Part shown: piece after piece, positions 2,513-51,732 of the stretch
How positions within the stretch are numbered: the first letter of the stretch is position 1
Layout: each line of letters starts with the position of its first letter
DNA from: an uncultured Luteitalea sp.
Lineage (GTDB): Bacteria > Acidobacteriota > Vicinamibacteria > Vicinamibacterales > Vicinamibacteraceae
DNA: 64,000 nt
Reading direction: 5' to 3'
Assembly: GCA_934541105.1 (NCBI GenBank)
Contig: CAKTDA010000005.1
Location: 155,245-219,244, forward strand
The notes under the pieces: generated by a model
The model's input: the letters and a program-made list of their open reading frames with translations, nothing else
Database searches by the model: none
What the model was told of the DNA's origin: nothing
Made by a program: the position numbers and the translations under genes

Positions 2513-2589
2513 TGGCACGCCCGGCAGGGCTCGAACCTGCGACCCCCGGCTTAGAAGGCCGGTGCTCTATCCAGCTGAGCTACGGGCGC
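2513..2589 (-). tRNA. tRNA-Arg (anticodon TCT), CCA encoded
   Basis: Reverse complement is GCGCCCGTAGCTCAGCTGGATAGAGCACCGGCCTTCTAAGCCGGGGGTCGCAGGTTCGAGCCCTGCCGGGCGTGCCA. It shows a cloverleaf, D-loop AGCTCAGCTGGATAGAGC, anticodon loop CTTCTAA and T-arm GGTTCGAGCCC. Confidence 0.93.
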
Positions 2590-3273: not shown

Positions 3274-5423
<2,150 letters not shown>

Positions 5424-6446
5424 CCATCGGCCTGCCGCCGGCGCTGCAGGCCGCAATCGACGCCGAGCTCGACGCCCGTGCGACGGGCCGTCTCGGCGAG
5501 GCATCCGCCGCACTCACGCGCGAGTACGCGGCCGGGCGGGCGTCGGCCGTGGCCGACCCGCGCCAGCACGCCGCCTACCTTGCCGCGCGACTCCCGGCCA
5601 CGTATGCGGCAGTGAGCGCGACGCTTGCGATGATCCCGGCCGACGTCCGCGACAGGCTGCGGACGCTGCTCGACCTCGGTGCCGGTCCCGGCACGGCGAC
5701 ATGGGCCGCACGCGAGCGGTGCCCGAACCTCGAATCCGCCCTCCTCGTGGATCGCAGCGCCGACCTGCTCGCGACCGCTGCGCGCCTCGGGCGGACGAGC
5801 GGCGCCGACGCCGCGGTCGCCGTCACCACCCGGGTCGGCGATGCGTCGCGGGGCACCTGGCCACGGGCCGATCTCGTCATCGTCGCCTATGCCCTCGCCG
5901 AACTCGACGGCCCGTCGCGCACCGCGGCACTCGCGGCAGCGTGGGCCGCCACCGCGGACGTCCTCGTGCTCGTCGAGCCCGGCACGCCGGATGGGTTCGA
6001 GCGCCTGCGCGACGCCCGCAGCCGGATGCTCGCCGGCGGAGCCGCCCTCCTGGCACCGTGTCCGCACGCAGGGGACTGTCCGATGACGGGTGCCGACTGG
6101 TGCCACTTCGCGGTGCGCGTCCCGCGCACGCGCCGGCATCGACACGTGAAGGGCGGCACGCTCGGCTACGAGGACGAGAAGTTCGCGTGCCTCGTGATGG
6201 GGCGTGCTGCTGCGGCGCCGGGTGAGGAGGCTCGCGTGCTGCGGCATCCACGCATCGACAAGGGCCGCGTGGGACTGACGCTGTGTACGACCGACGGGAT
6301 CGCGCGCGTGACGATCACGCGCCGCGACGAGACGTATCGTGCCGCCCGGAAGGTGGGGTGGGGCGACGCCTGGGGCGCCGCCCCGATCAGGGCCGCCGAC
6401 GATGAGCCGTCGCAGGACGACGGCGGTGCGTGCCAGGCCTGACCGG

Positions 6447-16358: not shown

Positions 16359-17372
16359 TCAGGCCGACGTCGCCTCGACGTACAGGCTGTAGAGGGACTG
16401 GCTGCCGGTCATGAACAGCCGGTTCCCCTTCGCGCCGCCGAAGCACAGGTTGCTGCAGATCTCGGGCAGGTCGATCTGCCCGATCGCCGTGCCATCCGGC
16501 GCAATCACGCGGACGCCGTCGTAGCCGGCGCCGGCCCATCCGGCGCTGGCCCAGACGTTGCCATCGCGGTCGCAGCGGATGCCGTCCGCGCCGCCCTTGC
16601 CCATGTCGTGGAACAGCCGTCCCGTCCCGAGCTTCGTGCCGCCGATCACGTCGAACACGTGGATGCCGCGCGGACGATCGGGAGTGGGGTTCTCCGTGTC
16701 GGCCACGTACAGCTTCGTATGGTCGGGCGAGAAGCACAGGCCGTTCGGCCGCCGCAGGGACTCGGTCATCGGTGCTGCCTGACGCGTCGCCGGGTCCCAG
16801 CGATACACGCGCGTCGGCAGTGCCTGCGCTTCGCGTCGTCCTTCGTAGAGCGACAGGATGCCGTAACCCGGGTCGGTGAACCACAGCGAACCGTCAGGGT
16901 GCGCGACGACGTCGTTCGGCGAGTTGAGCGGCTGTCCGTCGACCGCGTCGACGAGCGTGGTGATGGTCCCGTCGATTCCGGTCCGCGTCACGCGGCGCCG
17001 TTCGCAGGTCACGAGCCGGCCCTGCAGGTCGCGCGTGTTGCCGTTGCAGTTGTTGGACGGGCTCCGGAAGACGCTGACCTCGCCGGTCTCCTCGGTCCAG
17101 CGCAGGATGCGGTCGTTCGGGATGTCGCTCCAGAGCAGGCAGCGCACGTCGCCGAACCAGACGGGTCCCTCTGCCCAGCGGCAACCCGTGTAGAGGCGCT
17201 CGACGGCGGCGTTGCCGACGCGATACCTGTCGAAGCGGGGATCGAGAGACCGCACCGCCGGATCGGGGTAGCGGACGATGGTGCCGTCCCGGCGGGCGGG
17301 TTGCGCGTCGGCGCGTGCGATGGTGGCGCCGGCGGCGGCGACGGGCAGTGCGAGGAAGTGGCGGCGATCCAT
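16359..17372 (-). CDS. SMP-30/gluconolactonase/LRE-family lactonase, Tat signal
   Basis: ORF 16359..17372. MDRRHFLALPVAAAG signal. EGPVW...LLWSDIPNDRI...NGNTRD...SPNDVV...PNGLCFSPD are six-blade propeller lactonase motifs. Confidence 0.88.
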   Translation of the reverse strand: MDRRHFLALPVAAAGATIARADAQPARRDGTIVRYPDPAVRSLDPRFDRYRVGNAAVERLYTGCRWAEGPVWFGDVRCLLWSDIPNDRILRWTEETGEVSVFRSPSNNCNGNTRDLQGRLVTCERRRVTRTGIDGTITTLVDAVDGQPLNSPNDVVAHPDGSLWFTDPGYGILSLYEGRREAQALPTRVYRWDPATRQAAPMTESLRRPNGLCFSPDHTKLYVADTENPTPDRPRGIHVFDVIGGTKLGTGRLFHDMGKGGADGIRCDRDGNVWASAGWAGAGYDGVRVIAPDGTAIGQIDLPEICSNLCFGGAKGNRLFMTGSQSLYSLYVEATSA

Positions 17373-17391: not shown

Positions 17392-17715
17392 CTATGTCAG
17401 CGTGAACATCTCGCGTAAGTGGACCTGGACGGGTGAATGATCCTCGTGCGTCTCCATGATGTCGCGCATCATCGTCCACCACCTGCGCATCACGGGGTGA
17501 TCGCGAAGCGGCCCGAGCGCGTGATCCGTGCGGCGGGTGAGCACGGCAAACAGCGCCTGCGTCTCTTCGTCGAGGAAGATGCGGTAGTCCACGACGCCGG
17601 CCTCGCGCAGCAGGGCGGCGAGTTCGGGCCAGATGGCGTCGTGCCGGCGGCGGTACTCGTCGGCGTGCCCAGCCAGCAGTCGCATCCGGAAGGCGACGGT
17701 CTCGGTGGCGGGCAT
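17392..17715 (-). CDS. rhaM: L-rhamnose mutarotase
   Basis: Internal ATG (comp. 17713-17715) of ORF 17392..17763. AFRMRLLAGHADEYRRRHDAIWPELAALLREAG...RRWW...SPV parallels E. coli RhaM. The start overlaps the upstream stop (TGATG). Confidence 0.85.
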   Translation of the reverse strand: MPATETVAFRMRLLAGHADEYRRRHDAIWPELAALLREAGVVDYRIFLDEETQALFAVLTRRTDHALGPLRDHPVMRRWWTMMRDIMETHEDHSPVQVHLREMFTLT

Positions 17716-18125
17716 CACAGCATCGGCACGGCGCGCCGCGCGAGCTGCAGCGGCAGGCCCCACGGATCGCGCAGCATGACGAGGTGCGAGCCGTCCGCGC
17801 CATGCTGGTGCTCGACGAGCATCGCCCCCGCCGCGACGAGGCGTGCGGTGTCGGCGTCGGGATCGGCCGACGTGAACGCGACGTGCAGTTGCGCAGGGTG
17901 CAGGTCCCGGTACATGTCGGCCCGCGCCGACGCGTTGGTGTAGATCTCGATCATCACGCGCCGCGAGGCGTCCGCCAGGAAGTGCATGTGGACGGGCGGC
18001 TCCCCGCGCCGCACCACCTGCATGCCGAGGTGCTCGACATACCAGGCGGCGACGCCGACGGGATCGGTGACGTTGATCGCGAGGTGCTCGAAAGCAAGGC
18101 CTGCCATGCCGGCAGGTTGTACCAC
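17715..18125 (-). CDS. VOC (glyoxalase/bleomycin-resistance) family protein
   Basis: ORF 17715..18125. FEHLAINVTDPVGVAAWYVEHLGM...HVAF...LRDPWGLPLQL is a paired beta-alpha-beta-beta-beta motif pattern. Confidence 0.8.
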   Translation of the reverse strand: MVQPAGMAGLAFEHLAINVTDPVGVAAWYVEHLGMQVVRRGEPPVHMHFLADASRRVMIEIYTNASARADMYRDLHPAQLHVAFTSADPDADTARLVAAGAMLVEHQHGADGSHLVMLRDPWGLPLQLARRAVPML

Positions 18126-18157
18126 GGAGAGCCTGAACGCCGCTCCTCGGGCCGTCG

Positions 18158-18290
18158 GCCTTTGACCTTCGACCTTCGCCTTCGACCTTCGCCTTCGACC
18201 TTCGCCTTCGACCTTCGCCTTCGACCTTCGCCTTCGTCCTTCGTCCTTCGTCCTTTCCTTCTGACTTCCGACTTCTGACTTCCGACTTTC
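18158..18290. repeat. tandem short-unit repeat array (13-mer x5, 7-mers, 14-mer x2)
   Basis: ACCTTCGCCTTCG is repeated exactly five times (18172-18236). It is preceded by a partial unit and followed by TCCTTCG x2 (18237-18250) and CTTCTGACTTCCGA x2 (18258-18285). The reverse complement gives CGAAGG/CGAAGGT units. Confidence 0.95.
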
Positions 18291-18305
18291 ACATACGCTC
18301 TCCCC

Positions 18306-20861
18306 ATGATCAGACGCACCTTCCTCGAAACGCTCCTGGCCGCGGGCATGCTGCCGCTCCTGCGCGCGCGGACCGGCGCGGCACAGGCGACGGCCCCCAA
18401 TCCGGCGGACGCGCTGACGCTGCGTTACGCGCGCGCCGCGCGCCAGTGGGTGGAGGCGCTGCCCGTCGGCAACGGGCGGCTCGGCGGGATGGTGTTCGGC
18501 GGCATCGGCGTCGAGCGTGTGCAGCTCAACGAAGACACGCTGTGGTCGGGCGGGCCGTCCGAGTGGAACAACCCCGGCGCGCGGCAGGCGCTGCCCGAGG
18601 TGCGCCGACTCGTTGCTGCCGGCCGCTTTGCCGACGCCGACGCGGCCATGCGGCAGATGATGGGCCCCTACACGCAGTCATACCTGCCCCTTGGCGACCT
18701 GCGGATCGTGATGGAGCACGGCGACGTGGCCCGCGACTACGAGCGGGCGCTCGACATCGGGACCGGCGAGGCGACGGTGCGGTACCGGCTCGGCGGGGCG
18801 ACCTTCACGCGGACGACAATCGCGACCTGGCCCGACCAGGTGATCGCAATCCACCTGGCCTGCGACCAGCCCGGCCTGCTGCGGTGTGCCGTGCGGCTCG
18901 ACAGCCCGCTGCGCGCGGTGGCACGCATCGACGAGGGGGAACTGGTGCTGCGCGGGCGTGCGCCGGCGCACGTCGAGCCGAACTACGAGGACAGGCCCGA
19001 CCCCGTCCGGTATGCCGACGATCGCGGCCTCCACTTCGAGGCGCGCATCGCCGTGCTGACCGACGGCCGCGTCGAGCCCGATGGCGCGCAGTTGCAGGTG
19101 CGTGCGGAGCGTCACGCGACACTGCTCGTTGCCATGGCCACGAGCTTCGCGGGCCCGGCGCGTACGGGAGTGAGCGACGGGCGCGACCCGTCGGCCCTGA
19201 CGCGCGCCCAAGTCGCAGCGGCACTCGCGCGGCCGTGGGACGCGCTGCGTGATCGGCACCGTGCCGATGTGGCGGCCCTGATGTCGCGCGTGACGCTCGA
19301 TCTCGGCGCGTCACCGGCAAGGCCCGGCACGCCGACGGACGTGAGGCTCGCCGACGGCGCCGCGGCCGATCCCGCACTGGCGACGCTGCTGTTCCAGTAC
19401 GGCCGCTACCTGCTCGTCGCGTGCAGCCGGCCCGGCACGCAGCCGGCCACGCTCCAGGGCCTGTGGAACGAGCAGGTACGGGCGCCGTGGAGCAGCAACT
19501 ACACGGTGAACATCAACACCGAGATGAACTACTGGCCGGCCGAGCCCGCCAACCTCGCGGAGTGCCACGAGCCCTTGCTTGCCGCCATGGGTGAGCTGGC
19601 GGTGACAGGTGCCGAGACCGCGCGCGTGAACTACGGCTTCGGCGGCTGGACGACGCACCACAACACCGACCTGTGGCGGCAGACGGCGCCCGTGGGCCGG
19701 TTCGGCGAGGGCGATCCCGTGTGGGCCTCGTGGCCCATGGGCGGGGCATGGCTCGCGCAGCACCTGTGGGAGCACTTCGCGTTCGGCGGCGATCGCGAGT
19801 GGCTGCGACGGACGGCGCTGCCGCTGATGACGGGCGCCGCGCAGTTCTGCCTCGACCTGCTCGTCGAGGACGCCGACGGTTTCCTCGTGCCGTCGCCGTC
19901 GACGTCGCCCGAGCACAAGTTCCGGCTTCCCGGCGGCGGGATGGCCGCCGTCAGTGCCGGCAGTGCGATGGATCTCGGCATCACGTGGGACGTGTGCACG
20001 AACGTCAGGCAGGCCGCACGGCTGCTCGGCGTGCACGATGCCCGGGTGGAGCGTGTTGCGCAGGCGCTGCCACGGCTGCGGCCGTACCGCATCGACGCGC
20101 AGGGCGCGCTCCAGGAGTGGGGCGTGGACCTGCCGCCGCAGGATCCGCACCATCGCCACTTCTCCCACCTGTTCGGCTTGCACCCGGGACGCCAGATCAC
20201 GCCCGAGGCCACACCGGCACTCTTCATGGCCTGCCGCCGCTCGCTCGAACTGCGGGGCGACGAGGGGACGGGGTGGTCGCTCGCGTGGAAGATCAACGCG
20301 TGGGCGCGGCTGCGCGACGGCAACCGGGCGCACCGCCTCGTCGTGCGCCTGCTCCGGCTCGTCGAGGACACCGGCGTGCGCATGAACAACGCGGGCGGGG
20401 TGTACGCGAACCTGTTCGACGCGCATCCGCCGTTCCAGATCGACGGCAACTTCGGGGCCACGTCCGGCATCGTCGAGATGCTGCTCCAGAGCCATGCCGG
20501 AGTGCTCGACCTGCTGCCCGCGTTGCCGGACGCCTGGCCGCGCGGTCGCGTGAGCGGGCTGCGCGCGCGGGGCGGATTCGAGATCGATCTCGAGTGGGAG
20601 CAGGGGCAGCCCGTGCACGTGCGCATCCGCTCGCGCCTCGGGGGCGTGTGCCGCGTCAGGAGTGCCGTGCCCCTGCGCGTGGACGGGACTGCCGTGGTGC
20701 GTCCTGCGGAGGGCCCGAACCCGAACCCGTTGCTTGCCGTCCATCCGGTGGCCGAGCCCCTTCGAGCGCCCGGCGTGGTCGTGCCCGCACCCCTGCCTCT
20801 GCCGACGCATGTGATCGACATCGACACGACGGCCGGCGCGGAGGTGAGGCTCCGCGCGTGA
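18306..20861 (+). CDS. glycoside hydrolase family 95 (alpha-L-fucosidase-like), Tat signal
   Basis: ORF 18306..20861. [14 protein letters not shown] signal. [35 protein letters not shown] and the later [12 protein letters not shown] and [11 protein letters not shown] are GH95 hallmarks. Confidence 0.9.
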
Positions 20862-27411: not shown

Positions 27412-27430
27412 GCCACAGGCTAGCGCGTTC

Positions 27431-27466
27431 GAACGCCGAACGCCGAACGTCCAACTCCGGAACGCC
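27431..27466. repeat. heptamer tandem repeat (GAACGCC x2 exact plus 3 degenerate units)
   Basis: gaacgcc gaacgcc gaacgtc caactcc ggaacgcc, in the spacer between the methyltransferase start (27411) and the upstream gene stop (27473). Confidence 0.85.
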
Positions 27467-28795: not shown

Positions 28796-28857
28796 GAACG
28801 CCGAACGTCGAACGCGTAGGCTGCAGGCTGCAGGCCCTAGGCTGTAGGCTGTAGGCC
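28796..28857. repeat. composite heptamer array: GAACGNC x3 then AGGCTGY x5-6
   Basis: gaacgcc gaacgtc gaacgcg (28796-28816), then t aggctgc aggctgc aggccct aggctgt aggctgt aggcc (28818-28857). It ends directly at ATG 28858. Confidence 0.9.
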
Positions 28858-29775
28858 ATGATGCACCTGGGCTTTGTCACCGCCATCCTGCCCGAGTTCG
28901 ACCTGGAGCAGGTGCTCGCCTTTGCCGCTGCCGAGCGGTTCTCGTGCGTGGAGGTCATGTGCTGGCCTGTCGGCAGGGCCGAACGCAAGTACGCCGGCGT
29001 CACGCACGTCGACGTGACCGATTTCACGCGCGCGCACGGGGAGGACGTGCTCGCGCTGTGCGCGAAGCACGGCGTGTCGATCTCCGCGCTCGGCTACTAC
29101 CCGAACCTGCTCGATCCCGATTCCGGCGTGGCGGAGGTCGCACGCGCGCAGCTCGCGCGGGTGATCACGGCGGCGCCGCTGCTCGGGCTCGACACGGTCA
29201 ACACGTTCGTCGGCCGCGACTGGCGGCGCAGTGTGGACGACAACTGGCCGCGCTTCCTCGAGGTGTGGCGGCCGCTGCTGCGCCTGGCCGAGGACCACGG
29301 CGTGCGCATCGGCATCGAGAACTGCCCGATGTCGTTCACGCAGGACGAGTGGCCGGGCGGCAAGAACCTCTTCACGACGCCCGCGATCTGGCGCCGGGCG
29401 TTCGAGGACCTCGCGTCGCCGAACCTCGGGCTCAACTACGACCCGTCGCACTTCGCGCTGCAGCACATGGACCCGTGCAGCCCCCTGCGCGAGTTCGAGG
29501 ACCGCCTGTTCCACGTCCATGCCAAGGACGTGAAGATCGACAGGCATCGCCTCGACCAGGTGGGCGTGTTTGCCCACCCGCTCGAGTGGCACCAGCCGCG
29601 CATCCCCGGCTACGGCGAGATCGACTGGGCGCACTTCATGGGGGCGCTGATGGAGACGAGCTACCGCGGCCCCGTCTGCATCGAGGTCGAGGACGGCACG
29701 TTCGGCACGACGCTCGAAGGGCGGCAACAGGCGCTGCGCGTCGCGCGCAACGTGCTGGAACCGTATTTCGGGTAG
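28858..29775 (+). CDS. sugar phosphate isomerase/epimerase (xylose-isomerase-like TIM barrel), cytoplasmic
   Basis: ORF 28858..29775. Motifs IGIENCP, HVHAKD and GPVCIEVED are typical of the AP-endonuclease-2/XylA-like TIM-barrel family. Confidence 0.88.
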   Translation: MMHLGFVTAILPEFDLEQVLAFAAAERFSCVEVMCWPVGRAERKYAGVTHVDVTDFTRAHGEDVLALCAKHGVSISALGYYPNLLDPDSGVAEVARAQLARVITAAPLLGLDTVNTFVGRDWRRSVDDNWPRFLEVWRPLLRLAEDHGVRIGIENCPMSFTQDEWPGGKNLFTTPAIWRRAFEDLASPNLGLNYDPSHFALQHMDPCSPLREFEDRLFHVHAKDVKIDRHRLDQVGVFAHPLEWHQPRIPGYGEIDWAHFMGALMETSYRGPVCIEVEDGTFGTTLEGRQQALRVARNVLEPYFG

Positions 29776-32273: not shown

Positions 32274-32280
32274 AACCCGC

Positions 32281-32378
32281 CGAACGCCGAACGTGGACGG
32301 ACGAGGGCCGGAGGCCGACCGACGAGGGCCGACGGCCGACCGACGAAGGCCGAAGGCCGACCGACGAAGGCCGAAGAC
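32281..32378. repeat. 14 heptamer units in unbroken register with a 21-nt super-repeat
   Basis: cgaacgc cgaacgt ggacgga cgagggc cggaggc cgaccga cgagggc cgacggc cgaccga cgaaggc cgaaggc cgaccga cgaaggc cgaagac. The super-repeat is CGACCGA-CGARGGC-CGAMGGC x3 (32316-32378). It ends 7 nt before ATG 32386. Confidence 0.95.
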
Positions 32379-33557: not shown

Positions 33558-34166
33558 GTGAGCGCAGTCACCAATCCGCGGCCCGGTGCGATGCGCGCCG
33601 GCTCGATCACGCGTGAAACGTTCGGGCGCCTCATGGTGATGGCGCGCGACGGCGACACGGCAGCGCTGCACGACCTCTTCGCGCGGCACATGGCGCCGCT
33701 GCGTCGATGGGCCCGCGGCCGGTTGCCCCGGTGGGCGCGCACGGTGGCCGACACGGCCGATCTCGTGCAGGAGGCGCTCGTGCACACCCTGCGCCGCCTG
33801 GGCGAGTTCGAGCCGCAGGGCCACGGTGCACTGCAGGCCTACCTGCGCCGCGCGGTGGACAACCGCATCAACGACGAGTTCCGCAGGATCGCGCGGCGCG
33901 GGCTTGCCTCCGCGCTCGACGACGGGCAGGCCGACGCACGGCCCTCGCCACTCGACGAGGCGATGGCGCAGCAGACCGAGGCCCGCTATCGCGCAGCGCT
34001 GGCGCGGCTGCGTCCCGGGGATCGACGCCTCGTCGTGGCGCGCGTGGAACTCGGGTACTCGCTCGAACAACTGGCCCTGCTTACCGGACGCCAGCGCGTG
34101 GACACCGCTCGCGTGGCACTGCGCCGGGCCATCGAGCGGCTGGCCGCCGAGATGGCGCGTGGCTGA
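33558..34166 (+). CDS. ECF-family RNA polymerase sigma factor
   Basis: ORF 33558..34166 (GTG start, GAGG 10 nt upstream). Region 2: LFARHMAPLRRWARGRL...ADTADLVQEALVHTLRRLGEF. Region 4 HTH: YSLEQLALLTGRQRVDTARVALRRAIERL. Confidence 0.88.
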   Translation: MSAVTNPRPGAMRAGSITRETFGRLMVMARDGDTAALHDLFARHMAPLRRWARGRLPRWARTVADTADLVQEALVHTLRRLGEFEPQGHGALQAYLRRAVDNRINDEFRRIARRGLASALDDGQADARPSPLDEAMAQQTEARYRAALARLRPGDRRLVVARVELGYSLEQLALLTGRQRVDTARVALRRAIERLAAEMARG

Positions 34167-36627
34167 CGCCGGCATCGCCGCGCCTTTGCGGCGTGCGGGC
34201 CTTGCCGGTTCCCGCACGCGGGCCATTCGGACGATCGCCGATGCGCTCGTCCACGATGAGCCGATTCACTGGGACGGGGCCGACGCACTCGGCAGCACGC
34301 CGCACGAGCGCCTGCTGACCCGCGAGTTGCGGAGCCTGGCGTGGCTGTCCGCACACGCGGCCGATCCCACACCTCCGGTCAGGTCGCGCGCCGGCAGCCG
34401 TCGGGATCTCCTCGGCCTCGTGCTTGTCATGCTGGCCGCTGCGCAGATCCTCGGTGCCCTGGCGCTGCTGGTGCCTGGTCCGATCGCGGTGCCCATCGCG
34501 TCGTGGATCGCCATGGCCTCGTGTGTCATCGCGGCCGCCACGCTGCTCGGGCGCGGACGCGACGACGCGGCTGCGTGGTCGGTTGGCGTCGTCCTGCTGC
34601 TCGTGGCTACGCTGGAGGGCCGGGCGCTGGTCATGTCCGCAGGGCCGGCTGCGTCGGCATGGTGGCAGGACCTGTGGCACGTCGTCCACGCGGAGGCATT
34701 CATCCCGGTGGCGGCCTGGCGTGCAGCGCGGGCATGTCCGGGCGTGGTGCGGTTCAGCCGGTTCGACGCATGCTCGCGTGTGATGCGGGCCGTGGCGTTC
34801 GCCACGAGCATCGGGCTGGTGGTCGTGCACGATCGTGCGGTCCTGATGCCGCGTGATGCGTCCGGCGTCGTGCTGACGGCCTGGGTGGTTGCCGCGGTCC
34901 TGACAATTGCCGTTCGCAGCGGATCGTCGCGGCGGGTCGCGTGGCAGTCCGGTGCGTTGGCAGCGGCGCTTGCGACGTACGCGGCGCTGCAGGTCGGCGT
35001 GTGGCCGCCGACAGTCGATGCGCTCGCGGCGACAATCTGGCCATGGCTCGTGGCCACGCCGTGGTTGTGGCGCACCGGCCGCGCCGGACGCCGGACACCG
35101 GAAGCCGCGGCGCTGGACCTGATGGCGCACGCGCTGCGTCCGGTGCGCGCCGCGCTCATGCGGCGGCGCGACCGCAAGCGCGGCTCCGGCCTCGCGCGAG
35201 TGGCCGCGTGTGTGGCGTGTGGTCGCACCACGGGGGAGATCGCCGCGACCCTGCTCGAGCACATGATGAAGGGGCTCGACGTCGCGGACGGTGCCGTGCT
35301 GGTGCCGTCGGGCGCGACGTGGGTTCCGCTCGCCGGCGTGGCTCCGGCGCTCCCTTGCGATTCGGGTGTCGCCGCGTTGCTCGCCACGGCGGGACCGCCG
35401 CTCCGTGTGCGGGCTGGCGACGGGCTCTTCGGCCTGTTACCGGCTCGCGACCGTGCGTGGCTGCAGGGGGCCGGGCTCGAGGTCGTGGCACCACTGACGG
35501 CGGCGGATGGACGACCGCTTGCGGCGCTGGCACTCGGAGCCCGCCGCGACGGCAGGCCGCACACCTCACGTGACCTTGCGTTCGTCGCGGCAGCGGCGAG
35601 TACGGCGACGATTGCGCTGCAGGCCGAAGCCAGGCGGATGGCGTTCCCGGGCGCATCAGATGACTGCGAGCAGGAACTGGCGCTCGAGTGCGTCGCGTGC
35701 GGCGGCGTGGCAACGGCCGTCGCGCCGTGCGGCTGTGGCGCTGCGTCAATGCTCGCGTCGCTGCCGGCCCGGCTTGCCGACAAGTTCGTGGTCGAGCGAC
35801 GCATCGGTCGCGGCGGCATGGGCGTGGTGTATCTCGCGCGCGACGAGCGCCTCGGCCGCCAGGTCGCCCTCAAGACGCTGCCGCGCCTGCGGCACGCCGA
35901 TGCGGCCGGGATGCACGCCGAGGCGCGCGCGATGGCTGCCGTGGCGCATCCCGCCGTGGCGGTGCTCTATGAACTGCACGTCTGGCGCGATACCCCGGTG
36001 CTCGTGACCGAGTACCTGGCCGGGGGCACGCTCGCGGCGCGGCTCACGCACGGCCCCATGGCTCCGGTCGAGGCCGTTGCCCTTGCCACGTCGCTTGCCG
36101 ACGCGCTCGCCGACCTGCACGCGGACGGCTGGATGCACGGCGACATCAAGCCGAGCAACATCGGCTTCGGTCGGGCGGGCACGCCGAAGCTCCTCGACTT
36201 CGGGCTCGCGCGGCTCGTCGCCGGCGCGCGCACGCCCCCCGGAGCCGCGTGCCCGGCCGCCCGCTGCACCGACAGCAGCGTCGCCCTCGCCGGCACGCCG
36301 CGATACCTCTCACCCCAGGCGCTCGAAGGGCGCGGCGTGGGCGCGCATGCCGACGCCTGGGCGCTGTCGGTCGTGTTGTTCGAGATGGTGGCTGGCGTGC
36401 ATCCGTTCCGCACGACGTCGCTTGCCGCCATGCTGCGCGACATGCACCGGCGGGTGCCAGACGTCCGCGACGTCGCGCCACACGTCCCGGCCGTCCTCGC
36501 CCTGACGTTGCAGCAGGCGCTGCATCCGGATCCGTCGCGGCGGATTGTCACCGCGGCCGAGTGCGCTGCCGCGTTACGCCAGGTCTCGGTGCAGATCGGG
36601 ACGGATGTCAGTTCGCGACGCGCGTGA
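34159..36627 (+). CDS. multi-pass membrane Ser/Thr protein kinase (N-terminal cytoplasmic segment, TM block, GAF-like region, Cys-rich ribbon, C-terminal kinase)
   Basis: Frame of ORF 33826..36627. GTG 34159 overlaps the sigma stop by 8 nt (GTGGCTGA). About 8 hydrophobic helices at 34400-35050. CVACGG...CGCG near 35690-35740. Kinase motifs GRGGMGVVYLA, VALK, HGDIKPSNIGF, DFGLA. Confidence 0.85.
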   Translation: MADAGIAAPLRRAGLAGSRTRAIRTIADALVHDEPIHWDGADALGSTPHERLLTRELRSLAWLSAHAADPTPPVRSRAGSRRDLLGLVLVMLAAAQILGALALLVPGPIAVPIASWIAMASCVIAAATLLGRGRDDAAAWSVGVVLLLVATLEGRALVMSAGPAASAWWQDLWHVVHAEAFIPVAAWRAARACPGVVRFSRFDACSRVMRAVAFATSIGLVVVHDRAVLMPRDASGVVLTAWVVAAVLTIAVRSGSSRRVAWQSGALAAALATYAALQVGVWPPTVDALAATIWPWLVATPWLWRTGRAGRRTPEAAALDLMAHALRPVRAALMRRRDRKRGSGLARVAACVACGRTTGEIAATLLEHMMKGLDVADGAVLVPSGATWVPLAGVAPALPCDSGVAALLATAGPPLRVRAGDGLFGLLPARDRAWLQGAGLEVVAPLTAADGRPLAALALGARRDGRPHTSRDLAFVAAAASTATIALQAEARRMAFPGASDDCEQELALECVACGGVATAVAPCGCGAASMLASLPARLADKFVVERRIGRGGMGVVYLARDERLGRQVALKTLPRLRHADAAGMHAEARAMAAVAHPAVAVLYELHVWRDTPVLVTEYLAGGTLAARLTHGPMAPVEAVALATSLADALADLHADGWMHGDIKPSNIGFGRAGTPKLLDFGLARLVAGARTPPGAACPAARCTDSSVALAGTPRYLSPQALEGRGVGAHADAWALSVVLFEMVAGVHPFRTTSLAAMLRDMHRRVPDVRDVAPHVPAVLALTLQQALHPDPSRRIVTAAECAAALRQVSVQIGTDVSSRRA

Positions 36628-37453
36628 AGCCGACGCCGACACCACGCCCCGGGATTGCCATCGGCGTCATCGCGAAGCGCGTCGGGCCGCGCCCGATCGT
36701 CACCGCGCGGCCTGCCACGATGCCGATGCCCGCGCCGAGGATCACGTCGCTCGCGAAGTGCCGCCTCTCGGCAAGCCGCGAGCCGGCCACGTAGGCGGCC
36801 ACGGCATACGCCGGAACCCCGGCCTTCCAGCCGTAGTGCCGCTGCAGCACGGTCGCCGAGGCGAACGTCCCCGAACTGTGGCCGGATGGAAGCGACCAGT
36901 TGTCGCCGTCAGGCCGCTGTCTGTTGATGCTCAGCTTGAGCGCCTGCGTCAGGCCCTGGGCAACCACCTGGGCGCGCACGAGATCCGCACCGAGTTGGGT
37001 GCCGCGGCCGTGACCGGCAAGACGGGCGATGGCGTACGTGGCGACCGCGCCGCCGAACTGCACACCGAAACCGCCGACGATCTCGCCTGGCCCGAAGATC
37101 CGGGTCAGCGTGGGCGATGTCGCCATGTGCTGCGTGAGCCTGGCGTCGTGCGGATGGACGAGGGCCGCCGATGCACCAGCCGCGAGCAGGAGCCCGATGT
37201 TCTCCGCGCGGGCCACATGCGCGACCCGCCCGGGCAGCGCGCCGACGAGGGACGAGACTGTCGGCAGCGCCGGGGCGGCGTGTGGTCGCGATGGCGGCAC
37301 ACGGGTGATCGGCGGTGGCTGGCCGTCGCCCGTCGGCAGGGGAGCTGTCGTGTGGGCCGCAAGCGTCTCGATCGCCGCCGCATCCTGCGCGAAGGCGACG
37401 GGCGACGACATGCAGAGGACCACGGCGAACGGCGCGATGAGCCGGATGCGCAT
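36608..37453 (-). CDS. PAP2-family phosphatase, secreted/membrane
   Basis: ORF 36608..37453. Motifs KLSINRQRP, PSGHS and SRLAERRHFASD match KxxxxxxRP / PSGH / SRxxxxxHxxxD. The 3' end overlaps the convergent kinase gene by 20 nt. Confidence 0.85.
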   Translation of the reverse strand: MRIRLIAPFAVVLCMSSPVAFAQDAAAIETLAAHTTAPLPTGDGQPPPITRVPPSRPHAAPALPTVSSLVGALPGRVAHVARAENIGLLLAAGASAALVHPHDARLTQHMATSPTLTRIFGPGEIVGGFGVQFGGAVATYAIARLAGHGRGTQLGADLVRAQVVAQGLTQALKLSINRQRPDGDNWSLPSGHSSGTFASATVLQRHYGWKAGVPAYAVAAYVAGSRLAERRHFASDVILGAGIGIVAGRAVTIGRGPTRFAMTPMAIPGRGVGVGFTRVAN

Positions 37454-38051: not shown

Positions 38052-38087
38052 CGAGCCGAACACCGAACGTCGAACGCCGAACGCCGG
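38052..38087. repeat. heptamer tandem repeat filling a convergent intergenic spacer
   Basis: cgagc cgaacac cgaacgt cgaacgc cgaacgc cgg. It occupies nearly all of the 43 nt between stop 38042-38044 (+) and stop 38088-38090 (-). Confidence 0.9.
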
Positions 38088-41841: not shown

Positions 41842-42357
41842 TCAGTCGACGGCGGGGAGCCGCAGGACGTGACGGAAGCCGTCCGTGCCGACGCTGACCT
41901 CGATCCGCTGCGCCCGGCGCGTCGTCGAGACGACGAGGCGGCCGCGCCGTGCCGGGGGGCAGCCGTCCCGCTCGCGGATCACGCCGACGACGTCGAGGAC
42001 GACACGCGCGCAGGTTCGCGCGAGCTGGCGTGCGTCGGCCTGCACACACGAGACGCGATCGTCGAGCCGGATCGCGACGTCGGCGTGGTCCTGCCACGAC
42101 GGACGGGTCGCGCTGAGGGTCTGATGGAGCAACGGGTGGATCTCGACGACATCCGTCGGTGCGCCGCCGGTGGCGTCGCCGCCGACGTCGAGGCAGGCAT
42201 CGGCCGCGAGCGCCGATGCCGACTGGTACGCGGTCACGTCGGGGTAATCGGCCGCCGGAATCCGGACTTGAACGGAAGCCCATCCACTCCGGGGTCCGGA
42301 CGCGTAGAATCGTGCGCGTCGATCCGCGCGGACCCCGCGCCAGAGGAGCCACTGCAT
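41842..42357 (-). CDS. hypothetical protein (start unresolved)
   Basis: Part of ORF 41842..42621. This is the only frame in the 41.8-42.35 kb gap with G/C-rich third positions. The ATG at comp. 42355-42357 overlaps the divergent amidohydrolase ATG by 2 nt, so the true start is probably internal (for example GTG at comp. 42237). No recognised domain. Confidence 0.3.
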   Translation of the reverse strand: MQWLLWRGVRADRRARFYASGPRSGWASVQVRIPAADYPDVTAYQSASALAADACLDVGGDATGGAPTDVVEIHPLLHQTLSATRPSWQDHADVAIRLDDRVSCVQADARQLARTCARVVLDVVGVIRERDGCPPARRGRLVVSTTRRAQRIEVSVGTDGFRHVLRLPAVD

Positions 42358-43681
42358 GCCGACCCGATCCAGCTGGCGGGCCGTGATTGGGCTCGCCACG
42401 CTCGTGGCCTGTCTCGTCCCGGTCCGTCTCGCCGCCCAGGACCAGCCGCACGCGTTCGTCAACGCGCGCATCATTCCGATCTCGGGTCCCGAGATTCCGA
42501 CGGGCACGCTCGTCGTCCACAAGGGGCGCATCGTCGCCGTCGGGGCCACGGCCGCCATACCGGCCGGCGCGGTGCGCATCGACGCAGCGGGCAAGACGCT
42601 GATGCCCGGCCTCGTGGACACGCACAGCCATATCGGTGGCGGTCAGGGTGGCGACAGTTCCGCGGCGCTCCACCCGGACGTCCGCCTCCTCGACTCGTTC
42701 GACGCCCGCCACTCGGGATTGCAGCGCGCACGCGCCGGCGGCATCACGACCGTGAACGTGATGCCGGGCTCCGGCCACCTGATGAGCGGCCAGACGCTGT
42801 ATCTGAAGCTGCGCAGCGTGACGACAATCGACGGCCTCGTCATCACGCTGGATGACGGGCGCATCGCCGGCGGCCTGAAGATGGCAAACGGCACCAACCC
42901 CATGCGGCCCACCGGTCCGTTCCCGGGGACGCGGGCGCGATCGGCGGCCATGGCGCGCGACCTGTTCGTGAAGGCGCAGGCCTACCGCGAGAAGGTGAAA
43001 GCCGCAGGCGGCGACGCGGCAAAGCGTCCGGCCCGCGACCTCGGGATGGAAGCCCTCGTCGAGGTGCTCGACGGCACGCGCACCGTCCACTTCCACACGC
43101 ACCGCCATGACGACATCCTGACGGCCATCCGCATCGCGAAGGAGTTCGGCTTCACGCCCGTGCTCCAGCACGTGTCCGAGGGCTGGAAGGTCTCCGAGGA
43201 GATCAAGGCCGCCGGCTTCCCGGCGTCGGTCATCGTGATCGACGCGCCCGGCGGCAAGCTGGAAGCCGTGGACCTGTCGATGACCACGGCGCCGGTCCTC
43301 GACAAGGCGGGCGTCCTCACCGGGTTCCACACGGATGACTACGTGACCGACTCGCGCTTCTTCCTGCGCTCGGGTGCGCTTGCCGTCCGGGCGGGCATGC
43401 CGCGCGACCGCGCGCTGCATGCGCTCACGCTTGCCGGCGCGCAGATGCTGAAGCTCGACGCCCGCGTGGGCTCGCTCGAGCCCGGCAAGGACGCCGACGT
43501 GCTCGTGCTCTCGGGCGATCCGCTGAGCGTCTACACGAAGGTCGAACAGACGTGGGTGGAAGGCCGCAAGGTCTTCGACCTCGCCAACCCCGGGGATCGG
43601 CTCGTCGCGTTCGGCGGCCAGGGTGCCACGCGCGGCGGTGAGACGCTGCACGTCCACGCAGAAGAGGAAGGCCATCGATGA
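42356..43681 (+). CDS. amidohydrolase-family protein, secreted
   Basis: ORF 42356..43681, GAGGAG RBS at 42343-42348, signal peptide. ARIIPISG...HKGRIVAVG...LMPGLVDTHSHIGG metal-binding motif. Confidence 0.88.
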   Translation: MPTRSSWRAVIGLATLVACLVPVRLAAQDQPHAFVNARIIPISGPEIPTGTLVVHKGRIVAVGATAAIPAGAVRIDAAGKTLMPGLVDTHSHIGGGQGGDSSAALHPDVRLLDSFDARHSGLQRARAGGITTVNVMPGSGHLMSGQTLYLKLRSVTTIDGLVITLDDGRIAGGLKMANGTNPMRPTGPFPGTRARSAAMARDLFVKAQAYREKVKAAGGDAAKRPARDLGMEALVEVLDGTRTVHFHTHRHDDILTAIRIAKEFGFTPVLQHVSEGWKVSEEIKAAGFPASVIVIDAPGGKLEAVDLSMTTAPVLDKAGVLTGFHTDDYVTDSRFFLRSGALAVRAGMPRDRALHALTLAGAQMLKLDARVGSLEPGKDADVLVLSGDPLSVYTKVEQTWVEGRKVFDLANPGDRLVAFGGQGATRGGETLHVHAEEEGHR

Positions 43682-44934
43682 ACGCCGAACGGAGGAACGC
43701 CGAGCGGAGGCACGTGAGTGGCGCCCTGCGCGTCATGGCCCTGTGCGCGGCCGGTCTGTTCGTGCTCGGCAGCGGCACGGCGCGTGCGCAGATCGCCGTG
43801 CGGGCAGACACGATCCACACGATGGCTGGTGCACGCATCACCGACGGGGTCGTGCTCGTACGCGACGGCCGGATCGAACGCGTGGGGCCGGCATCGCAGG
43901 TCGCCGTGCCTGCCGGGTACAGGGAGGTGCGCGCGAAGGTCGTGACGCCGGGCCTCATCGACGCCCACACCGTCGTCGGCCTCTCCGGGTACCTGAACCA
44001 GCCGCACGACCAGGATCAGGTCGAGCGGTCGGCGCCGATGCAGCCGGAGCTTCGTGCCGTTGACGCGTACAACCCGCAGGATCGGCTCGTCGAGTGGATT
44101 CGGCAGCACGGGGTCACGACCATGCACACGGGTCACGGGCCGGGTGCGCTGATCTCCGGCCAGACCATGGTCGTCAAGACGGTGTCGCCGCTTGCGGCCG
44201 AGGCGATCCTCGTGCCCGAGGCGATGGTCGCCGCGACGCTTGGCGACGGGGCCGTGGCGCAGGGTCGTGCGCCCGGCACGCGCTCGAAGGCCGTCGCGAT
44301 GCTGCGCGCCGAGTTGATCAAGGCGCGCGACTACGCCGACAAGATGGCCGGGCCCGAGGACAAGCGGCCGTCGCGTGACCTACGGCTCGAGGTGCTCGCC
44401 CGCGTGATCCGCAAGGAGACGCCGCTCCTCGTCACGGTGCAGCGTGCCGTGGACATCCAGGCCGCGCTCCGCGTGGCGAAGGAGTTCGACATCCGCGTGA
44501 TCCTCGACGGCGCGGCCGAGGCGCACCTGCTCGTGGACGCGATCAAGGCCGCGGGCGTGCCCGTGATCGTCCACCCGACGATGGCGCGGGCCAATGGCGA
44601 GACCGAGAACCTGTCGCAGGAGAACGCCGCGGTGTTGCGCCGTGCGGGCATCCCGGTGGCGCTCCAGAGCGGGTTCGAGGGCTACGTGCCGAAGACGCGC
44701 GTCGTGTTGTTCGAGGCCGGCGTGGCGGCAAGCCGCGGGCTCACGTTCGACCAGGCGCTGGCGACCGTCACGATCGACGCGGCGAGGCTCCTTGGCGTGG
44801 ACAAGCGGGTGGGATCGATCGAGGCCGGCAAGGACGCCGATCTCGCGCTCTTCGACGGCGATCCCTTCGAGTACGCGACGCACGTGACGGGCGTGTTCAT
44901 CGGCGGCCGGCAGGTGAGCGACACGGTGCGCTGA
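43678..44934 (+). CDS. amidohydrolase-family protein, secreted (tandem paralogue)
   Basis: ORF 43678..44934, ATGA overlap with the upstream paralogue. ...ALRVMALCAAGLFVLGSGTARAQ signal and PGLIDAHTVVGL. The first 11 codons are encoded by a 15-nt tandem repeat. An alternative start is the Met of MALCAAG. Confidence 0.85.
   Translation: MNAERRNAERRHVSGALRVMALCAAGLFVLGSGTARAQIAVRADTIHTMAGARITDGVVLVRDGRIERVGPASQVAVPAGYREVRAKVVTPGLIDAHTVVGLSGYLNQPHDQDQVERSAPMQPELRAVDAYNPQDRLVEWIRQHGVTTMHTGHGPGALISGQTMVVKTVSPLAAEAILVPEAMVAATLGDGAVAQGRAPGTRSKAVAMLRAELIKARDYADKMAGPEDKRPSRDLRLEVLARVIRKETPLLVTVQRAVDIQAALRVAKEFDIRVILDGAAEAHLLVDAIKAAGVPVIVHPTMARANGETENLSQENAAVLRRAGIPVALQSGFEGYVPKTRVVLFEAGVAASRGLTFDQALATVTIDAARLLGVDKRVGSIEAGKDADLALFDGDPFEYATHVTGVFIGGRQVSDTVR
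43680..43709. repeat. 15-nt tandem duplication built from GAACGCC-type units, in frame with the CDS start
   Basis: gaacgccgaacggag / gaacgccgagcggag (14/15 identity). It translates as NAERR NAERR directly after ATG 43678. Confidence 0.85.
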
Positions 44935-49928: not shown

Positions 49929-50224
49929 ATGGTTCCCGCACGCCGGCTGAAGCCGCTCGTTGGCTGTCTGCTGTCCACCCTTCTCTGTTTCACGCCCCTG
50001 CCCGCAGCGGCACAGGCGATTTACGGTACGGTCACCGGCCAGGTCGAGGACGACTCCGGTGCGGCCGTCCCCGGCGCCACGGTCCAACTCGCGAACGAAG
50101 CGACCGGTCTTCAACTCGATGGCGTGAGTGACGAGAACGGCACGTACACGATCCGCAACGTCACGGCAGGTCCGTACACGCTGCGCGCGTCGCTGCAAGG
50201 CTTCAAGGAGTTCGTCCAGACCGG
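49929..50224 (+). pseudogene. 5' fragment of a CarboxypepD_reg/TonB-dependent receptor gene
   Basis: ORF 49929..50534 has a GGAGG RBS and a signal peptide. GTVTGQVEDDSGAAVPGATVQLANEATG...ENGTYTIRNVTAGPYTLRASLQGFKEF parallels the N-terminus of the 22012 receptor. After about codon 98 the frame becomes Arg/Ala-rich with no coding character. Confidence 0.65.
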
Positions 50225-50352
50225 ACGCGTACTACGCGGGGACCTCGCCACTCGACTACGGTGGCACGCGCGTCGAGGCGCTCGGCCTGCCGCGCGAGGT
50301 GCTGGAGAAGTTCTACTTCCGCAACGCGCAGCGGTTGATTGGCGTGCAGTAG
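50225..50352 (+). pseudogene. 3' fragment of an amidohydrolase-2-type gene
   Basis: Frame of ORF 50128..50352 ends ...YYAGTSPLDYGGTRVEALGLPREVLEKFYFRNAQRLIGVQ. This resembles the C-terminus of the 61006 amidohydrolase (...VYGLHLPDDVLEKVYRTNADRVLGW). No N-terminal part is present. Confidence 0.5.
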
Positions 50353-50391
50353 CCGGCCCTCGGCACCCGGCCCGCCTTCCCGGGGTTGCCG

Positions 50392-51690
50392 TCAGGAGCC
50401 TCTTGCCCATTCGGGCGGCTGGCGGAGCCGATGGAGCATCTCGCCGGCCTTTCGCACGAGCAGGACGCCCTCGTCCTTCCTGTTGGCGAACGACTCGACG
50501 TCGATCGTCGCCGGATCGCGGTAGCCGAGGTTGATCTGGTGGCAGATCGCCTCGGGGATCTGGCTCGCGACGGTGACCTTGATGCGGCAGCGCTCGACGC
50601 CGTCCTCGTAGGTGCCGATGCCGCGCACATGGGTCGAGTGGGCCAGCACGCCCCACGGCAGGTGGCCGAAGCGGTCCCATTGCGCGCGGAAGTAGTCGCG
50701 GCAGTGGTAGCCGATCTCGAGCAGCAGCCGGCCATGCGTCACCGACACCTCACGGATGTGCGGGGCGTAGATGATCAACTCGCCCCCGTCGGCCACGACG
50801 GGCTCGAGCTTGTACATGCCCTTGCCGCCGGTCCAGAGGTCCTCGTACATCGGCGGGACGCACGACAGCACCGTGTGATACGGGCGCTCCTCGTAGACGA
50901 TGTGCGTGCGCCGCGAGAGTTCGCTGGCCTCGGTCCACGCGGCCTCCGGCGTCCCGCCGAAGATCCCCGCGAGCGCGCCGTCAGGGCGCACGACGAGGCA
51001 GAAGCACGTGCGCGGGGTGGAGACGAGCGCGCCGGCGGCGTCCACGATCCGGCGCACCGGCGTCCACTTGCTCCCGATGATCATCGGGTTGGTGACGACG
51101 GCGCCGAGCCAGTGGAAGAAGTTGAGGATCTCGGGACCGCTCACGCCGGGGAACAGGTACTTGTTCCCGCCGGAGAACCCGACGACCTCGTGCGGGAACA
51201 CGGGGCCGATGATGACCACCTGGTCGTACTCGAGGACGCGGCGGTTGATGGCGACCGGCACGTCGGTGTCGAACGCGCCGTCGGTGAGTTCGGCCACGCG
51301 GGCGCCGTCGAGCACGCCGATGCGCTCGAGCGCCGCCGGGTTGTCCCACTCGTGGTTGAAGAACCCGACGTCCCGATACGTCCCCTGCCGCTCCTCCATC
51401 GTCATGTCGAGGCGCCGGCAGATGGCCTCCTCGCTCATCGGCTGGTGCGTCCCGAGCGCGATCAGCACGTCGAGCCGCGCCACGGTGCCGGCCAGTTGCT
51501 CGTGCAGCAGGCGGAAGACCGTGCCGACGGGTGCCGTGCGCGTGCCGTCTGGCACGATGGCCAGCACGCGCTGGCCGCGCCAGCGATCGGCAGGACAGGT
51601 GCGCGCGAGGACGTCGGCAACCGACGCCGGCGTCACCGCCGCATCAGCGCCGGCAACGGCGGAGTGGCAGGGTGCGGAGGGAGCGTTCAC
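50392..51690 (-). CDS. LarA-like (DUF2088, nickel-pincer-dependent 2-hydroxyacid racemase/epimerase family) protein
   Basis: ORF 50392..51690 (GTG start). VLAIVPDGTRT, LIALGTHQPM, PHEVVGFSGGNKYLFPG (the Lys-containing GG.K motif used for cofactor tethering in LarA), and AHSTH. Confidence 0.85.
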   Translation of the reverse strand: MNAPSAPCHSAVAGADAAVTPASVADVLARTCPADRWRGQRVLAIVPDGTRTAPVGTVFRLLHEQLAGTVARLDVLIALGTHQPMSEEAICRRLDMTMEERQGTYRDVGFFNHEWDNPAALERIGVLDGARVAELTDGAFDTDVPVAINRRVLEYDQVVIIGPVFPHEVVGFSGGNKYLFPGVSGPEILNFFHWLGAVVTNPMIIGSKWTPVRRIVDAAGALVSTPRTCFCLVVRPDGALAGIFGGTPEAAWTEASELSRRTHIVYEERPYHTVLSCVPPMYEDLWTGGKGMYKLEPVVADGGELIIYAPHIREVSVTHGRLLLEIGYHCRDYFRAQWDRFGHLPWGVLAHSTHVRGIGTYEDGVERCRIKVTVASQIPEAICHQINLGYRDPATIDVESFANRKDEGVLLVRKAGEMLHRLRQPPEWARGS

Positions 51691-51704: not shown

Positions 51705-51732
51705 AACGCCGAACGCCGAACGCCGAACGCCG
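51705..51732. repeat. AACGCCG x4 exact tandem heptamers
   Basis: aacgccg aacgccg aacgccg aacgccg, between the LarA-like start (51690) and the GNAT stop (51735). Confidence 0.95.

Follow-up and report, generated by a model that had tools for sequence, protein, structure and literature searches.

A tandem array of 6- and 7-nt units takes up most of the gap between a glyoxalase/VOC-family gene and a GH95 alpha-L-fucosidase-family gene in the window, as we call the whole 64,000-nt stretch of DNA analyzed here. Our reading, which we hold to be probable, is that the array is a hypermutable compound SSR of the heptamer family, grown by slippage, that acts as filler between two probably leaderless core promoters and is one of many arrays of this kind. 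The features on which this reading rests, including the orthologous spacers of relatives, are collected in Table 1.

With [N]CCTTCG (6 or 7 nt) taken as the unit, the array holds 13 consecutive copies at 18165-18250, and four CTTCYGA units follow; it therefore has the head-to-tail arrangement of ~7-nt units that characterizes the LSSR class. TRF assigned period 13 to positions 18166-18255 (6.8 copies, 97% matches), with a score of 157 that was the highest in the window, and period 14 to positions 18258-18288 (2.2 copies, 100% matches); period 7 with 15.1 copies was an alternative call for the array. When the window was shuffled 30 times with dinucleotides preserved, the maximal TRF score averaged 57 and reached 92 at best, versus 157 in the real sequence, and CCTTCGNCCTTCG with at most one mismatch occurred 10 times versus 0.61 expected. 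The array is thus far beyond chance. Its GC content is 56% (70% for the window), and 78% of its plus strand is pyrimidine. The units and coordinates given in the original prediction (ACCTTCGCCTTCG x5, TCCTTCG x2 and CTTCTGACTTCCGA x2) were confirmed from the sequence. Its view that the repeat has no hairpin potential also held, as an inverted-repeat search of the array found none and the spacer, folded as single-stranded DNA, scored poorer than its own shuffles (z = +1.9). By the same search and fold, readings as a terminator, a cruciform or an hmw-type hairpin were ruled out, and a rut-like C-rich RNA was rejected because no plus-strand gene upstream could transcribe through the array. A scan with Rfam 15 at gathering scores found no family at the locus; the only match in the window was a tRNA gene at 2516-2589 (minus strand, 68 bits).

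Table 1. Coordinates of the features around the array, other arrays in the window, and orthologous VOC/GH95 spacers of relatives
Feature	Position	Strand	Description	Basis
SMP-30/gluconolactonase-like (SGL) gene	16359..17372	-		Pfam
rhaM	17392..17715	-	L-rhamnose mutarotase, 107 aa	gene call, PF05336
Glyoxalase/VOC-family gene	17715..18107	-	130 aa, first in VOC-rhaM-lactonase operon	Pfam, gene calls
Putative VOC core promoter element	18116..18125	-	GTGGTACAAC, 8 nt before VOC ATG, resembles extended -10	conserved GTGATACAAC block
Whole tandem array	18155..18288	.	compound 6/7-nt units	TRF, sequence, composition
Copy-variable block	18172..18236	.	ACCTTCGCCTTCG x5 exact	sequence and second assembly
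TCCTTCG part	18237..18257	.	TCCTTCG x2 at 18237-18250, then degenerate third copy TCCTTTC	
CTTCYGA part	18258..18288	.	CTTCYGA x4 (= CTTCTGACTTCCGA x2 exact, 18258-18285)	TRF, sequence
Putative GH95 leaderless core promoter element	18294..18299	+	TACGCT, -10-like TAnnnT hexamer, 6 nt before GH95 ATG	
GH95 alpha-L-fucosidase-family gene	18306..20861	+	851 aa	Pfam, E = 5e-168
Array	27430..27466	.	CGAACGC x5.1, tandem minus-strand spacer	
Array	28796..28857	.	GAACGCC x2.9 then GTAGGCT/GCAGGCT x6, fills 70-nt SnoaL>AP_endo tandem spacer	
Array	32277..32376	.	CCGAACG/CCGAAGG/CCGACCG heptamers, period 7/21, fills GDSL>GFO350 tandem spacer	
Array	38055..38086	.	GCCGAAC x4.6, fills 43-nt convergent stop-to-stop spacer	
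Array	51705..51732	.	AACGCCG x4 exact, tandem minus-strand spacer	
Orthologous locus L087			70-nt spacer, no array	VOC 73% aa identity
Orthologous locus L076			81-nt spacer, no array, only CCGGTTG/CCGGTTC doublet	GH95 76% aa identity
Orthologous loci L006 / L086			86-nt spacer, small GAATGCCGC x3.7 array	GH95 73%, VOC 82% aa identity
Orthologous locus L171			NCGAACG x22, GGTATCG/GGAATCG x5.6, GC-rich hairpin, degenerate CCCTTCG array	GH95 90%, VOC 95% nt identity
Orthologous locus L172			GGCCTTC-type heptamers	in 90% aa cluster of window's VOC (~80% nt identity)
Orthologous locus L085			CAAGGGA x7.7, then its inverse	VOC 83% aa identity
Orthologous locus L092			CGGCAAC/CGGCGAC x8 and CGGCATT x4	VOC 82% aa identity
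Orthologous locus L107			CGGGAAC-like units and GCATGAG x5.9	VOC 80% aa identity
Orthologous locus L091			CGGCATT x4	VOC 78% aa identity
Orthologous locus L090			CATGNNT x4; downstream gene may not be GH95	VOC 70% aa identity

That the array fills a divergent control region, as had been proposed, is supported by the coordinates: the spacer between the VOC gene (minus strand) and the GH95 gene (plus strand) measures 198 nt, and without the array only 64 nt would be left. The proposal had used a GTG start at 18125 on the minus strand, and with it a spacer of 180 nt. We place the VOC start at the ATG at 18107 instead, because it is the gene caller's choice, all orthologues conserve it, and the 6 to 8 nt upstream vary by non-multiples of 3; the spacer is therefore 198 nt and not 180 nt. 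The minus-strand unit had been called the rhaM operon, and it does contain rhaM, but its first gene encodes the glyoxalase/VOC protein and rhaM comes second. On the other side, the GH95 protein has a twin-arginine-like N-terminus, and the nearest relatives of its gene, at 73-76% identity, are in Acidobacteriota MAGs including Luteitalea sp. (Vicinamibacteria). The same species was not found in the scans of genomes and metagenome contigs, in which the nearest matches were 76% (GH95) and 83% (VOC) identical; proteins identical to both are also encoded on two further large contigs.

Next, we considered where transcription of the two units might begin. A strict sigma-70 consensus scan of 17900-18500 matched no promoter, and promoter positions were placed by conservation. 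As seen among the orthologues, a TAnnnT hexamer stands 6-7 nt ahead of the GH95 ATG or GTG in all of them (8/8), and on the VOC side about 10 of 13 orthologous loci have the GTGATACAAC block, 6-8 nt ahead of the ATG. A Shine-Dalgarno motif is absent ahead of both starts; among the 48 called genes of the window, Shine-Dalgarno cores lie 5-12 nt ahead of the start in about 21, and TANNNT hexamers cluster 5-12 nt upstream of starts (9 of 20 occurrences). This conservation suggests that GH95 and VOC probably have leaderless or near-leaderless core promoters hugging their start codons. In the window, GH95 lacks an evident -35 at a suitable spacing. The CTTCYGA part, inside which two CTGACT motifs occur, would overlap the expected -35 zone, and the distance from CTGACT to the -10 is 17 nt in the relative L171 but only 13 nt in the window.

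Measured from the start codon, the copy-variable 13-mer block spans -70 to -134 for GH95 and -65 to -129 for VOC. With the promoters placed as above, it would lie outside the conserved -10-like blocks, not between a -10 and a -35, and probably not in a leader. It had been predicted that slippage by one unit would alter promoter spacing or leader length. That part of the prediction is not sustained: since the block sits some 65-134 nt upstream of both starts, outside the -10-like blocks, and the genes look leaderless, slippage would change neither the -35/-10 spacing nor the leader length. Transcription starts within the array or farther upstream would, however, make it part of a 5' UTR and weaken the case for its having little effect. 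A promoter-like repeat is seen at another site in the window, 28816-28857, where the unit GTAGGCT/GCAGGCT contains a -10-like TAGGCT, the last copy of which lies 7 nt before the AP_endonuc_2 ATG at 28858; this array may supply or multiply the -10 box of a leaderless promoter.

An independent assembly that encodes the same proteins (contig k141_181041 of ENA ERZ27286916) carries two copies of the 13-mer, versus five in the window. Across 11973-35284 of the window (~23 kb) the two sequences have no mismatch, and over ~53.5 kb (2920-56458) they differ by 2 SNPs, about 4 in 100,000 bases; the sole indel between them is a gap of 39 nt (3 x 13) that falls in the array. The seven other arrays, which are shorter or less perfect, are identical in the two assemblies. 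Copy number therefore differs between near-identical sequences, each of which comes from a short-read metagenome assembly. The two SNPs are an A>C change at 36962, in a PAP2 gene, and a C>T change at 42182, in a gene for a 131-aa hypothetical protein. The Logan contigs of run ERR7738460 are 100% identical to the window, break at arrays and carry no copy-number information; they have the window alleles at 36962 and 42182, and two of them meet near 42170-42186.

A length change confined to the longest perfect array is the pattern expected of a hypermutable SSR, although mis-sizing by an assembler would look alike. We therefore weighed the possibility that the array is real and the difference of five versus two copies is an artefact of a de Bruijn assembler that collapsed the period-13 block or expanded it. 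Short-read metagenomes are the source of both contigs (with MEGAHIT-style k141 names), the difference sits exactly in the longest perfectly periodic stretch, and the Logan contigs of ERR7738460 break at such arrays, one of them (L166) starting at 32345 inside the array at 32277-32376. Nevertheless, the periodic stretch of 78 nt is shorter than k = 141 and shorter than typical reads and should be resolved, the 2 SNPs between the assemblies point to slightly different populations, and the large differences in the 90%-identical L171 indicate a locus that changes quickly. On balance we regard an artefact as somewhat unlikely, and rapid gain and loss of units in the exact 13-mer block is plausible. 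In practical terms, assemblies with k=31 break at arrays of this kind, whose length in metagenome-assembled genomes may be wrong.

The VOC/GH95 arrangement is conserved in relatives, with spacers of 70, 81, 86, 138, 159, 182, 198, 313 and 408 nt. Alignment of these spacers, which the original prediction had suggested, showed that the sequence of the unit and the length of the spacer turn over rapidly, while short blocks next to the starts are conserved. Spacers without an array, or nearly so, measure 70-86 nt; because of these and of the 64 nt that the window would retain without its array, about 70-80 nt would seem to suffice as a control region. In the comparison with L171, only the ~100 nt of spacer nearest GH95 are alignable. 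There, the TCCTTCG part aligns with the degenerate CCCTTCG array of that sister lineage, and the CTTCYGA part is partly conserved. The arrays thus appear to be lineage-specific expansions within the control region, with whole arrays replaced by other units over longer times, and the spacers of this one gene pair show the variation of length and sequence among close relatives that marks the LSSR class.

Two of these relatives show further arrays around the VOC gene. In L171, the 22-copy NCGAACG array (3823-3977, 155 nt) adjoins the VOC promoter block, a site where the window has no such array; its GAACGCC-family heptamer recurs as arrays in five other intergenic spacers of the window. In L085, a rearranged locus, the spacer between rhaM and VOC (5795-5990) holds CAAGGGA x7.7 followed by the inverse TCCCTTG and folds as a ~190-nt hairpin or cruciform (-56 kcal/mol, z = -7.5), and a CCGGAAA x10.6 array lies between VOC and GH95. 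Inverted pairs of arrays were also seen in Planctomycetota, Bacteroidota and other unrelated contigs, where 7-8-nt arrays near GH95/VOC are followed by their reverse complement within ~100 nt (L072 3596-3710, L031 21566-21632, L131 4421-4546, L016 981-1053 and L044 7135-7253); examples are AGAAGGGG/TCTCCCCT, TAGTTGT/ACAACTA and ACGCAAAG/CTTTGCGT.

The turnover of units bears directly on the proposal, made in the original prediction, that the array is a multimeric binding platform, in which the CCTTCG/CGAAGG units would be iterated sites for a regulator, a nucleoid protein or an RNA-binding protein that coordinates both transcription units. Thirteen phased copies of one core would suit such a role. 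A related CGAAGG array lies at 32344-32377 upstream of another oxidoreductase gene, the heptads of the ctx promoter are known to recruit ToxT and H-NS, and CspB binds heptamer repeats with one protein per heptamer (PMC4679880). However, the unit is not conserved even at 90-95% identity, and orthologues carry unrelated units or none; many different array units occur across the genome, none of the six called genes nearest the array encodes a regulator, and neither an Rfam match nor secondary structure was found. With its unit sequence so poorly kept in orthologues, the array is very improbable as a binding platform.

Rather than being peculiar to this locus, arrays are common in the window. The non-coding share of the annotated span (3274-56363) is 6.3%, and of its 3350 non-coding nt about 413, or ~12% of the intergenic DNA, belong to arrays. 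Five exact period-7 runs reach 2.5 copies or more, and each of them is intergenic, as is the period-13 run. The spacers that bear arrays are divergent (18155-18288), tandem (four arrays) and convergent (38055-38086), and GAACGCC is a recurrent unit among them. Doublets of CCTTCG are found elsewhere in the window only at 32344-32377, on the opposite strand. Close relatives, sampled as fragments totaling 157 kb, have an array density of 15.3 per 100 kb, with 7, 14 and 21 as the main periods, versus 2.3 per 100 kb in other phyla (1.45 Mb); period 7 accounts for 13 of the 24 arrays in the close relatives, a count that refers to these fragments and not to whole genomes. The intergenic confinement typical of the LSSR class is thus seen in the window, and its period-7 excess in the close-relative fragments.

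Two other origins of the GAACGCC arrays were considered and discarded. A strand-polarized signal of the KOPS or Chi type was rejected because single-copy counts of the heptamer are balanced between the strands (for example, 20 versus 14 with array copies included), and no shared flanks of a MITE or REP-like element were seen around the arrays. One repeat built from the genome's favorite heptamer lies in coding sequence, namely, a 15-nt repeat at 43680-43714 (GAACGCCGAACGGAG x2.3), which is in frame in the 5' end of an amidohydrolase gene (43678-44934) and encodes NAERR twice. Two other spots among the gene calls of the window deserve mention. A CarboxypepD_reg-domain gene (49929-50534, plus strand) and a LarN-like gene (50392-51567, minus strand) overlap by 143 nt, and one call or start is probably wrong. 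The start of a gene for an 822-aa Ser/Thr protein kinase shares 8 nt with an ECF sigma factor gene (33558-36627); the two are a possible sigma/kinase signaling pair.

The distribution of the arrays also matters for the suggestion that the array is a contingency or rheostat locus, in which slippage of the 13-mer would shift promoter distance, helical phase or an upstream element and so tune GH95, the VOC-rhaM-lactonase unit or both in subpopulations. One half of this suggestion is plausible, as the difference of five versus two 13-mers between near-identical assemblies, which differ by only 2 SNPs over ~53.5 kb, would be the behavior of an unstable locus; the other half is not supported, as such arrays are not specific to the sugar locus. 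The array does lie in the control region of two units that resemble sugar-utilization genes by their Pfam families, a change of 39 bp (~3.7 helical turns) would alter the relative face of the two promoters, and expression is known to change with copy number for the hmw ATCTTTC repeats of H. influenzae and the ctx TTTTGAT repeats of V. cholerae. Against these points, orthologous spacers of 70-408 nt suggest that the two promoters tolerate almost any distance, equivalent arrays occupy convergent and tandem spacers that lack promoter logic, period 13 with mixed units gives no defined on/off register, and the variable block would lie outside the promoter-proximal blocks as placed by conservation. 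Contingency loci act through a reading frame, the -35/-10 spacing or a functional leader; the array is non-coding and, with the promoters placed as they are here, would fall in none of these. Because of the range of spacer lengths, the arrays where no promoter exists, and the position of the variable block outside the promoter-proximal elements, we do not favor a rheostat and consider it unlikely.

What we favor is filler. The array would have grown by replication slippage within a divergent control region for which ~70-80 nt are enough, and each gene would keep its own core promoter elements right beside its start codon, so that the array between and upstream of them would be expandable. An effect on expression, if any, would act through the distance or helical phase of the back-to-back promoters or through properties of the upstream DNA, and would probably be small. 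Since it is one of many arrays that fill gaps in this lineage, the array looks like an ordinary slippage-prone repeat and not like a switch dedicated to sugar genes. One observation runs against the reading as filler: most relatives have some array in the same spacer, so that a long or variable spacer may be under selection and the array not neutral. A more far-reaching alternative, which we consider distinctly unlikely, holds that the arrays are hypermutable spacers, placed between back-to-back or leaderless promoters and at gene ends, that by expanding and contracting tune many ordinary metabolic genes lineage-wide in a free-living soil bacterium, and that the strict preference for 7 nt reflects a specific slippage or repair mechanism; if it were true, the GH95/rhaM array, with five versus two copies, would be the first example caught in the act.

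If the difference in copy number is real, an uncultured soil acidobacterium would have, between a fucosidase gene and a rhamnose-related operon, a control region shared by both whose repeat is naturally polymorphic. The array might then serve as a marker for strain typing and as a test case for long-unit SSRs that tune metabolism outside pathogens. The findings add a high-GC soil phylum to the lineages with an unexplained excess of heptamers (Xanthomonas, Nostoc, Burkholderia and Beggiatoaceae), and this heptamer-rich window and its relatives bear on why 7 nt is favored. Arrays of this class are apparently undescribed before in Vicinamibacteria-like Acidobacteriota, for which our search found no published description of them.

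Repeats of similar size upstream of genes are known from several bacteria. The ATCTTTC repeats of hmw1/hmw2 in Haemophilus influenzae (PMC12721329) are, like the present array, heptamer-class SSRs upstream of a gene, with variable copies and a pyrimidine-rich unit. However, the hmw repeats are transcribed as part of a 5' UTR, where pairing with a G-rich segment makes a hairpin cleaved by RNase III, whereas the array described here has no complementary segment or hairpin and its genes look leaderless. The TTTTGAT heptads of ctxAB in Vibrio cholerae (bioRxiv 10.1101/2021.05.14.444153) also lie upstream of the core promoter and vary in copy number by strain, but they are conserved AT-rich sites for ToxT, ToxR and H-NS, while here relatives do not share the units, and nothing points to a binding protein. 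The array therefore fails the defining features of both hmw-type hairpins and conserved binding-site arrays.

The closer parallels are with intergenic heptamer arrays. Among long SSRs, heptamers have been reported to be the most abundant class in many bacterial genomes, with polymerase slippage proposed as an explanation (Mrazek et al. 2007, as cited in PMC4692102 and PMC4679880). The TAACTGA direct-repeat arrays of marine Beggiatoaceae, Cyanobacteria and some Bacteroidetes (MacGregor 2015, PMC4679880) are likewise intergenic and often directly ahead of start codons, and the corresponding spacers of close relatives are shorter and free of repeats. Those genomes favor one heptamer, in forward orientation and in presumed 5' UTRs, whereas diverse units are found here, in either orientation and in all spacer types. 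In Xanthomonas and Nostoc, the GGGAATC and GGGGA(T/C)T arrays, respectively, are intergenic, sometimes inverted, and of lengths and sequences that differ, for a given gene pair, from one close relative to another (Rehm et al. 2015, PMC4692102). Together with the cyanobacterial STRR heptamers, they share with the arrays described here the tandem units of ~7 nt, the intergenic location, the many arrays per genome and slippage as the proposed origin; the wide variation among close relatives and the occasional inversion, as in L085, are also alike. The differences are the high-GC, Vicinamibacteria-like host, the use of many units instead of one dominant G-rich unit, the lack of G-quadruplex potential, and the 7+6 compound unit with its period of 13. 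Overall, the array belongs with the LSSR class, of which it is a compound member in a high-GC host.
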